NCBI RefSeq assembly: GCF_045037415.1
Contig: NZ_CP173438.1
DNA: 64,000 nucleotides
Strand: one strand, 5' to 3'
Origin: Escherichia coli
GTDB taxonomy: Bacteria > Pseudomonadota > Gammaproteobacteria > Enterobacterales > Enterobacteriaceae
Shown here piece by piece: positions 58,596-61,500 of this stretch. Every line of letters begins with the position of its first letter. Within the stretch, counting starts at the first letter, position 1. The position numbers were made by a program.

Positions 58596-61500
58596 TAAAA
58601 CGTGAGGAAATACCTGGATTTTTCCTGGTTATTTTGCCGCAAGTCAGCGTATCGTGAACATCTTTTCCAGTGTTCAGTATGGTGCCTTGCACGGTAATTA
58701 TGTCACTGGTTATTAACCAATTTTTCCTGGGGGATAAATGAGCGCGGGAAGCCCAAAATTCACCGTTCGCCGCATTGCGGCATTGTCACTGGTTTCGCTA
58801 TGGCTGGCAGGCTGTTCTGACACTTCAAATCCACCGGCACCGGTCAGCTCCGTTAATGGCAATGCGCCCGCAAATACCAATTCTGGTATGTTGATTACGC
58901 CGCCGCCGAAAATGGGGACGACGTCTACAGCGCAGCAACCGCAAATTCAGCCGGTACAGCAGCCACAAATTCAGGCTACTCAACAACCGCAAATCCAGCC
59001 TGTGCAGCCAGTAGCTCAGCAGCCGGTACAGATGGAAAACGGACGAATCGTCTACAACCGTCAGTATGGGAACATTCCGAAAGGCAGTTATAGCGGCAGT
59101 ACATACACCGTGAAAAAAGGCGACACGCTTTTCTATATCGCCTGGATTACTGGCAACGATTTCCGTGACCTTGCTCAGCGCAACAATATTCAGGCACCAT
59201 ACGCGCTGAACGTCGGTCAGACCTTACAGGTGGGTAATGCTTCCGGTACGCCAATCACAGGCGGAAATGCCATTACCCAGGCCGACGCAGCAGAGCAAGG
59301 AGTTGTGATCAAGCCTGCACAAAATTCCACCGTTGCTGTTGCGTCGCAACCGACAATTACGTATTCTGAGTCTTCGGGTGAACAGAGTGCTAACAAAATG
59401 TTGCCGAACAACAAGCCAACTGCGACCACGGTCACAGTGCCTGTAACGGTACCAACAGCAAGCACAACCGAGCCGACTGTCAGCAGTACATCAACCAGTA
59501 CGCCTATCTCCACCTGGCGCTGGCCGACTGAGGGCAAAGTGATCGAAACCTTTGGCGCTTCTGAGGGGGGCAACAAGGGGATTGATATCGCAGGCAGCAA
59601 AGGACAGGCAATTATCGCGACCGCAGATGGCCGCGTTGTTTATGCCGGTAACGCGCTGCGCGGCTACGGTAATCTGATTATCATCAAACATAATGATGAT
59701 TACCTGAGTGCCTACGCCCATAACGACACAATGCTGGTCCGGGAACAACAAGAAGTGAAGGCGGGGCAAAAAATAGCAACCATGGGTAGCACCGGAACCA
59801 GTTCAACACGCTTGCATTTTGAAATTCGTTACAAGGGGAAATCCGTAAACCCGCTGCGTTATTTGCCGCAGCGATAAATCGGCGGAACCAGGCTTTTGCT
59901 TGAATGTTCCGTCAAGGGATCACGGGTAGGAGCCACCTTATGAGTCAGAATACGCTGAAAGTTCATGATTTAAATGAAGATGCGGAATTTGATGAGAACG
60001 GAGTTGAGGTTTTTGACGAAAAGGCCTTAGTAGAAGAGGAACCCAGTGATAACGATTTGGCCGAAGAGGAACTGTTATCGCAGGGAGCCACACAGCGTGT
60101 GCTGGACGCGACTCAGCTTTACCTTGGTGAGATTGGTTATTCACCACTGTTAACGGCCGAAGAAGAAGTTTATTTTGCGCGTCGCGCACTGCGTGGAGAT
60201 GTCGCCTCTCGCCGCCGGATGATCGAGAGTAACTTGCGTCTGGTGGTAAAAATTGCCCGCCGTTATGGCAATCGTGGTCTGGCGTTGCTGGACCTGATCG
60301 AAGAGGGCAACCTGGGGCTGATCCGCGCGGTAGAGAAGTTTGACCCGGAACGTGGTTTCCGCTTCTCAACATACGCAACCTGGTGGATTCGCCAGACGAT
60401 CGAACGGGCGATTATGAACCAAACCCGTACTATTCGTTTGCCGATTCACATCGTAAAGGAGCTGAACGTTTACCTGCGAACCGCACGTGAGTTGTCCCAT
60501 AAGCTGGACCACGAACCAAGTGCGGAAGAGATCGCAGAGCAACTGGATAAGCCAGTTGATGACGTCAGCCGTATGCTTCGTCTTAACGAGCGCATTACCT
60601 CGGTAGACACCCCGCTGGGTGGTGATTCCGAAAAAGCATTGCTGGACATCCTGGCCGATGAAAAAGAGAATGGTCCGGAAGATACCACGCAAGATGACGA
60701 TATGAAGCAGAGCATCGTCAAATGGCTGTTCGAGCTGAACGCCAAACAGCGTGAAGTGCTGGCACGTCGATTCGGTTTGCTGGGGTACGAAGCGGCAACA
60801 CTGGAAGATGTAGGTCGTGAAATTGGCCTCACCCGTGAACGTGTTCGCCAGATTCAGGTTGAAGGCCTGCGCCGTTTGCGCGAAATCCTGCAAACGCAGG
60901 GGCTGAATATCGAAGCGCTGTTCCGCGAATAAGTAAGCATCTGTCAGAAAGGCCAGTCTCAAGCGAGGCTGGCTTTTTTTCTTTTGGTACATGTTGAACT
61001 GTTATCGGATACAGCGTTAAAACTTTATCTGACTGACCAGGGGACGGCACTTTTTAGATGTAGAAGACCGGATAGACGCGTCAGCATCACATTCGGCAAT
61101 CATCATTTTAAGCGCGCAGTAATTGTCGCCACGCGTTCACCATATTTCACGGCTGTATCCAGATCGCCCGTAGGGATTTGCTCTGCACCCGCATCGGCTG
61201 GAGATTGCACCAGCAAACCGACCGAACCGCCCAGATTGTTTACATCTTCCCTGGTTGACGCAAGCACATTGGCAGGAGCCTGACCTAAACTCACCCACAG
61301 ACCGCCATGCTGTGAAGCCAGCGTTTGCAGATAGATCAGCGTAACTTGTTTATCGCCATTCAGGCTGGCGCTGTTGGTGAAACCCCCGAAGACTTTATCC
61401 TGCCATTTACGTGTAAACCACGCTTTGGAACTGGCATCAGCAAATTTCTTGAATTGCCATGGCGCACCGCCCATATAGGTGGGAGCACCGAAGATAATGG

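Follow-up and report, generated by a model that had tools for sequence, protein, structure and literature searches.

The nlpD-rpoS locus and its octapeptide repeat

In the Escherichia coli contig NZ_CP173438.1 (NCBI RefSeq assembly GCF_045037415.1), of which a stretch of 64,000 nucleotides (nts) was analysed and is here called the window, the open reading frame (ORF) list gives the gene order truD-surE-pcm-nlpD-rpoS. The subject here is a tandem repeat of 24-bp units within nlpD that encodes octapeptides in the N-terminal linker of the lipoprotein NlpD, together with its length alleles in E. coli and their bearing on rpoS, the gene that follows. The main features of the two genes are these (aa, amino acids):

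58738–59877, plus strand: nlpD coding sequence in the ORF list, 379 aa from the ATG at 58738
58813–58815, plus strand: lipobox Cys26 (L-A-G-C), the lipid-anchored mature N-terminus and start of the linker, as read from the sequence
59104–59232, plus strand: LysM domain, aa 123–165, which bounds the N-terminal linker downstream (Pfam PF01476, E = 2.7e-12)
59572–59853, plus strand: Peptidase_M23 domain (degenerate LytM), aa 279–372 (Pfam PF01551, E = 4.6e-33)
59940–60932, plus strand: rpoS coding sequence, intact, 330 aa from the ATG at 59940

The gene is nlpD and its product belongs to the NlpD family of lipoproteins with a LysM and a degenerate LytM/M23 domain: there is a lipobox signal peptide, LysM is followed by a C-terminal Peptidase_M23 domain, and the surE-pcm-nlpD-rpoS synteny is present. 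Identity to annotated E. coli nlpD (‘murein hydrolase activator NlpD’) is 100% over 291 nts of DNA, and to named NlpD protein clusters it is 99% at the protein level. E. coli NlpD is a lipoprotein of the outer membrane, localised to the division site, that reaches septal peptidoglycan and activates the amidase AmiC (PMC5533458). It has two linkers that are predicted to be disordered, one of them N-terminal (Tsang et al., PMC5533458). The repeat, at aa 66–98, is inside this N-terminal linker, between Cys26 and LysM, and the linker would tether the LysM and degenerate LytM domains to the lipid anchor.

The RefSeq/PGAP annotation starts nlpD at a TTG at 58783, giving 364 aa, and this form is without the positively charged n-region (KFTVRR) expected of a lipoprotein signal peptide. 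The classical NlpD of 379 aa is obtained from the ATG at 58738, which has GGGGGA just upstream. As a consequence of the two start calls, the same NlpD alleles appear in protein databases as two length series (379/363/355 for ATG and 364/348 for TTG).

The components of the repeat, with the direct repeats that figure in its length changes, are:

58933–58956, plus strand: unit 1, CAGCAACCGCAAATTCAGCCGGTA, QQPQIQPV, aa 66–73
58957–58980, plus strand: unit 2, CAGCAGCCACAAATTCAGGCTACT, QQPQIQAT, aa 74–81
58981–59004, plus strand: unit 3, CAACAACCGCAAATCCAGCCTGTG, QQPQIQPV, aa 82–89 (all three units from Tandem Repeats Finder (TRF), repeat search and offset comparison)
59005–59031, plus strand: degenerate unit 4, QPVAQQPV (59005–59028), plus Q, aa 90–98, to which the +9 and −9 bp alleles map
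End of unit 3 and degenerate unit 4, plus strand: QPV-QPV 9-bp mini-repeat, CAGCCTGTG / CAGCCAGTA
58936–58946, plus strand: 11-nt exact direct repeat CAACCGCAAAT, copy 1, the longest word at offset 48, with the −48 junction and the +48 register
58984–58994, plus strand: the same 11-nt repeat, copy 2
58948–58959, plus strand: 12-nt exact direct repeat CAGCCGGTACAG, copy 1, junction of the −72 deletion and the +72 duplication
59020–59031, plus strand: the same 12-nt repeat, copy 2

This tandem repeat is real and far beyond chance. TRF reports a period of 24 with 2.7 copies, 70% matches and a score of 67, and a separate repeat search recovers the same three head-to-tail 24-bp copies. At an offset of 24 the repeat matches itself at 34 of 48 positions, a value that none of 2000 dinucleotide-preserving shuffles of nlpD reached (maximum 27) and none of 2000 codon shuffles (maximum 31). 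The initial annotation had pointed to an in-frame octapeptide repeat in the nlpD linker, and the three units at 58933–59004, with their near-identical peptides, bear this out. Its description of the underlying DNA as directly repeated does not hold to the same degree: pairwise, the units match at 17/24, 20/24 and 16/24 positions (67–83%), and the longest exact words shared are 9 nts at offset 24, 11 nts at offset 48 and 12 nts at offset 72. All three units share the same QQPQIQ core, 100% of the nucleotide differences within it being synonymous, and amino-acid differences between units are confined to unit positions 7–8. Divergent DNA with purely synonymous core differences points to an old triplication that has been kept at the peptide level, and not to recent expansion. 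A search of the opposite strand for an overlapping antisense gene found no minus-strand ORF of 60 aa or more across 58930–59040.

The repeat is already known, and is an ordinary, textbook-level feature of E. coli NlpD. It was named in the title of a 1994 paper (Ichikawa et al., as cited in PMC2736372) and mentioned in later work, and the Pro/Gln repeat reported in 1994 is the identical feature in the same N-terminal region of the same gene. A species-wide census of its length alleles is not part of the earlier repeat papers as far as literature searches show.

Length alleles in E. coli

The census covered 5426 complete E. coli genomes, in 5420 of which the locus is present. Plain megablast of the region misses variants, for 48-bp indels are split into two high-identity pieces inside the main identity band. 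Variants were sought with synthetic one-unit, two-unit, four-unit and −9 queries, and with real variant alleles as these were found. The synthetic one-unit query is uninformative, as normal genomes also reach 100% coverage of it, through two pieces joined together. For −48, −72 and +72, short junction-specific queries with strict E-value cut-offs were used, so that only junction-carrying genomes were counted. The counts were:

−24 or +24 bp (two-unit or four-unit allele): 0 of 5420
+48 bp: 1 of 5420, PapRG-04-4, with five units
+9 bp: 4 of 5420 (a minimum), an additional QPV on two distinct allele backgrounds
−9 bp: 7 of 5420 (a minimum), mainly bovine isolates
−48 bp: 61 of 5420, one unit remaining (junction query, E ≤ 1e-24)
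−72 bp: 2 of 5420
+72 bp: 0 of 5420 complete genomes

Length variants thus total at least 75 of the 5420 (~1.4%), and 98.6% have the canonical length. As a cross-check, 64 genomes cover less than 80% of a five-unit query, and these are the 61 with −48, the two with −72 and one with a divergent allele, that of strain RM9387. Head-to-tail copies at one locus, with length polymorphism within the species, make this a variable-number tandem repeat. An invariant copy number had been put forward as what would refute strain-to-strain variation, and the number does vary. The variation is rare, though, and never by a single 24-bp unit. Preservation of frame, also anticipated, was found throughout: all indels are multiples of 3 (9, 48, 57 and 72 bp), the ORFs remain full-length and there are no frameshifting length changes.

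A wider collection adds a −57 allele and one +72 allele, the latter from a draft genome (protein P0003). The −72 allele protein, P0150, is present there in 82 collection blocks with three downstream contexts, and one-unit alleles occur in Shigella dysenteriae, S. flexneri and S. boydii. Of the 61 one-unit complete genomes, about half are named O157:H7 or have chromosomes of O157 size (5.4–5.6 Mb), and among this half are EC4115, TW14359, RM6067W, SS17 and SS52. The others are diverse human, poultry, pig and environmental strains. Literature searches turned up no description of an nlpD 48-bp deletion in O157:H7.

Breakpoints, recurrence and mechanism

All breakpoints coincide with direct repeats of 8–12 nts, exact or nearly so. 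The −48 junction is inside CAACCGCAAAT and the −72 and +72 junctions are inside CAGCCGGTACAG, while the ±9 events are within the CAGCCAGTG/CAGCCAGTA mini-repeat with breakpoints on CAGCCAGTG/A. Length changes track the longest internal direct repeats, in 48- and 72-bp steps, and the single 24-bp step is unused.

The whole nlpD of EC4115, a −48 allele, is one single nucleotide polymorphism (SNP) from the three-unit O157:H7 allele of strain 3384, and 9–11 SNPs from the −48 alleles of Shigella dysenteriae, AMSHJX01, ECCWS199 and P276M. The −72 alleles are on at least two nlpD backgrounds. Since the same deletions are found on different nlpD haplotypes, they arose more than once.

Deletion and duplication between short direct repeats can occur by replication slippage, and RecA-independent rearrangements of tandem repeats are known. 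Deletions in the classic lacI studies were reportedly between short direct repeats. The nlpD events resemble the classic case in having breakpoints on 8–12-nt repeats that are 9–72 bp apart, and in comprising deletions plus reciprocal duplications, the mechanism for nlpD being deduced from junction sequences alone. The indels would arise by misalignment between the short direct repeats during replication. Single-unit slippage of 24 bp would be suppressed because adjacent units share an exact word of only 9 nts, and the divergence of neighbouring units at synonymous sites would account for events of 9, 48 or 72 bp, anchored on the longest of the short direct repeats, in place of 24-bp steps. 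Selection on NlpD would remove frameshifting events, and the variants that survive would alter the length of a flexible tether only, with little or no phenotypic effect. Slippage is likely to be rare and tether-length changes near-neutral.

Overall, what is described here is very probably best explained as the known Pro/Gln octapeptide repeat in the disordered NlpD linker, with slippage variants that leave rpoS control unaffected. Several points weigh against this explanation. The argument for slippage is built solely on the anatomy of the breakpoints, and that for near-neutrality on the persistence of one-unit alleles in successful lineages (O157:H7 and Shigella). The ±9 counts are lower bounds, and up to two genomes in the 90–95% identity band could be further variants. 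The length of the linker is not irrelevant in general, as deletion of aa 29–64 of NlpD harms its outer-membrane sorting and function. Finally, purely synonymous divergence of the core suggests that the peptide itself is constrained, which a pure spacer model leaves unexplained.

Other species and comparable systems

Three units are kept in E. fergusonii (P0010) and E. whittamii. The E. albertii type strain has four, and another genome, 98–100% identical to E. albertii across the locus, has seven. Two units plus a degenerate third are present in Cedecea neteri and Enterobacter sp. Ag1. In Citrobacter, Salmonella, Enterobacter, Kosakonia and Lelliottia only one PQIQPVQ is retained, with degenerate sequence rich in Q, P and V after it, and Yersinia NlpD is without the repeat region (PMC2736372). 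This species distribution is not exhaustive, for the two-unit DNA pattern scan missed E. fergusonii despite its three units at the protein level, either through codon choices that the pattern does not cover or through gaps in the scan. The same scan also returned no representatives of E. marmotae or E. ruysiae. In Kosakonia cowanii the linker has a run of QPV-like tripeptides (QPVQPVQSVQPVQPVQPIQ...; proteins P0072–P0074, P0077 and P0079), and its NlpD is of 373 or 379 aa in different strains, an independent instance of linker length variation. From the sequences compared, the linker is best regarded as a fast-evolving, low-complexity segment with lineage-specific expansions.

A counterpart is known in Salmonella Typhimurium UK-1, where nlpD has a 12-bp in-frame deletion judged not to fall in the rpoS promoter and to be unlikely to have an effect on rpoS (PMC3391293). 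Like the E. coli indels, it is a strain-specific, frame-preserving change within nlpD (PMC3391293). The deleted sequence (reverse complement CGCCGCAACAAG) appears to fit the Q/P-rich QQTPQQAPQ of the Salmonella linker. In contrast to E. coli, the Salmonella unit is of four residues and there is no octapeptide triplication. The C565T hotspot of Pseudomonas fluorescens SBW25 is likewise a local bias in mutation within nlpD, and the rpoS promoter embedded there enters into its discussion (PMC11838912). It differs, however, in being a point mutation that overlaps the promoter and depends on transcription from it (PMC11838912), whereas the E. coli events are direct-repeat indels more than 300 nts upstream of the promoter.

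Tether length or peptide motif

The canonical tether is of about 96 residues. Natural E. coli alleles range from 72 to 112, and the seven-unit E. albertii allele reaches 122. The persistence of one-unit alleles in successful lineages suggests that shortening has little cost. The NlpD repeat belongs to the class of disordered linkers present in the outer-membrane lipoproteins RcsF, Pal and NlpD, for which the presence of a linker matters for Lol-dependent sorting (bioRxiv 10.1101/2021.01.05.425367). When aa 29–64 of NlpD were deleted, ~60% of the protein was in the inner membrane and complementation was impaired (bioRxiv 10.1101/2021.01.05.425367). That deletion ends just before the repeat at aa 66–98, and literature searches found no published experiments on the NlpD repeat itself.

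The alternative that survives best is that the octapeptide units are a functional short linear motif, mediating for instance a low-affinity contact with a partner at the division site or in the envelope, with copy number tuning avidity or reach and the variants being adaptive. The three units differ in their cores at synonymous positions only. The divergent E. fergusonii-like, E. whittamii and E. albertii alleles have many silent changes and yet an unaltered core, and Citrobacter, Salmonella, Enterobacter, Kosakonia and Lelliottia all retain PQIQPVQ at least once. A fusion with only the N-terminal linker of NlpD is weakly enriched at midcell (PMC5533458), which may be counted on the same side, as may the fixation of the −48 allele in an O157:H7 sublineage and its presence in Shigella. 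Set against these, lineages with one-unit and −72 alleles are viable and widespread, Yersinia NlpD does without the region (PMC2736372) and no partner is known. In addition, a frequency of 1.4% with clonal distribution fits drift and hitch-hiking equally well. A role of this kind is unlikely, though it deserves to be kept in mind.

A stronger form of the same idea is that unit number (one in the O157:H7 sublineage and Shigella, three in most E. coli, four to seven in E. albertii) sets the reach or avidity of NlpD across the gap between outer membrane and peptidoglycan, the recurrent −48 deletion being adaptive and lineage-defining in host-restricted pathogens. We consider this decidedly improbable. 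Were it true, the −48 deletion would alter the cleavage of the septal cell wall or the properties of the envelope.

The rpoS promoter and leader

The main promoter of rpoS, rpoSp, is inside nlpD, as stated in the initial annotation, and with the coordinates of PMC1852560 it maps as follows:

59339–59373, plus strand: rpoSp, with −35 TTGCGT at 59339–59344, −10 TATTCT at 59362–59367 and the start at ~59373

Counted from the rpoS ATG, the −35 is at −601/−596, the −10 at −578/−573 and the start at −568/−566 (Coldewey et al., PMC1852560). The mapping was checked with primer RpoS 8 (−657) of PMC1852560, which matches the window at 59283, as expected. A consensus promoter scan of 58560–60000 gave no sigma-70-like site and missed rpoSp, and its coordinates are therefore taken from that paper. 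On this scale the repeat spans −1007 to −909 and ends 308 nts upstream of the −35, outside both rpoSp and the 567-nt leader.

It had been suggested that indels in the repeat could affect the context of the rpoS leader, and a related proposal is that they change the leader or promoter context in such a way as to modulate RpoS expression. In its favour, nlpD is in an operon with rpoS, and RNAs that start at the nlpD promoters and read through into rpoS include the repeat (PMC2736372, PMC3391293). Only these minor read-through transcripts contain it, however. The repeat, at −1007 to −909, is well separated from the promoter at −601 to −566 and from the 567-nt leader (PMC1852560), and complementation plasmids starting at −657 were designed to carry the main rpoS promoter (PMC1852560). 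The RNA of the repeat has no unusually stable fold (folding z = −0.38), and there was no Rfam match at E ≤ 1 within 58400–60100. In-frame indels leave translation of nlpD through the promoter region unchanged, and the same judgement has been published for the Salmonella nlpD linker deletion (PMC3391293). An effect on RpoS expression is accordingly very improbable. Length variants would leave rpoS control unaltered because the main promoter and the 567-nt leader begin more than 300 nts downstream of the repeat.

Hypermutability and artefact

That the repeat is a contingency locus, hypermutable and phase-variable, which switches the state of NlpD at high frequency, might be thought of for a tandem repeat in the gene for a surface-associated lipoprotein, the more so as identical length changes recur on different backgrounds. 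Its units, however, are long (24 bp) and imperfect (67–83% identity) rather than perfect and short, and with no frameshifts there is no on/off switching, either of frame or of promoter spacing. The canonical length in 98.6% of 5420 genomes, and variants that are clonally shared (~30 O157:H7 genomes), speak for low mutation rates, and we give the proposal hardly any weight. Least probable of all is that the length variants are assembly or sequencing artefacts: though singletons exist (the +48 of PapRG-04-4 and the +72 draft genome), the repeat is only ~100 bp and well inside read length, the alleles are present in many independently sequenced genomes and separate databases (61 genomes for −48; P0150 in 82 blocks), and their sizes are all exact multiples of 3, the junctions lying cleanly on direct repeats.

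Neighbouring observations

The nlpD of E. coli RM9387 (NZ_CP009104.1; 1117–2208 of the compared segment) is a mosaic that is unique among the 5420 genomes. The 5′ part (83.6% identity with the window) and a segment of about aa 215–260 match the E. fergusonii type, and in the middle and at the 3′ end the sequence is the same as in E. coli. The pattern suggests inter-species recombination at the locus.

Downstream of rpoS (61103–62922 in the window) gene content varies between strains. Here and in strain SK1144 there are genes for a flavodoxin-family protein and a metallo-beta-lactamase (MBL)-fold hydrolase. Some other strains have a GntP-family permease, and others, together with E. albertii, have MarR/flavoprotein/UbiD. 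This is probably the known polymorphic rpoS-mutS region.

Strain SK1144 matches the window at 100% identity in its nlpD segment, and its rpoS (4101–5092 of the compared segment) is annotated as a frameshifted pseudogene. In the one-unit, Shigella-type genome CP026828.1, rpoS (2655–3646 of the compared segment) is split into ORFs of 29 and 277 aa. Three proteins, P0045 (560 aa), P0092 (550 aa) and P0087 (403 aa), have an N-terminal NlpD part, 99–100% identical over 81–85% of the query, fused to UbiD-family or sigma-70 region 4 domains. Such fusions suggest natural deletions that remove or truncate rpoS and join nlpD to downstream sequence.

Significance

What is added to a known repeat is modest: a quantitative census of its natural length alleles, and the finding that length changes are tied to the longest direct repeats within it. 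The comparison also disposes of a link to rpoS regulation that is tempting but wrong. An O157:H7 sublineage to which the 2006 spinach-outbreak strains belong is marked by the one-unit allele, which several Shigella also have, and PCR product size could make it a simple lineage marker. The natural alleles are test material for the effects of tether length on an amidase activator that is anchored in the outer membrane.

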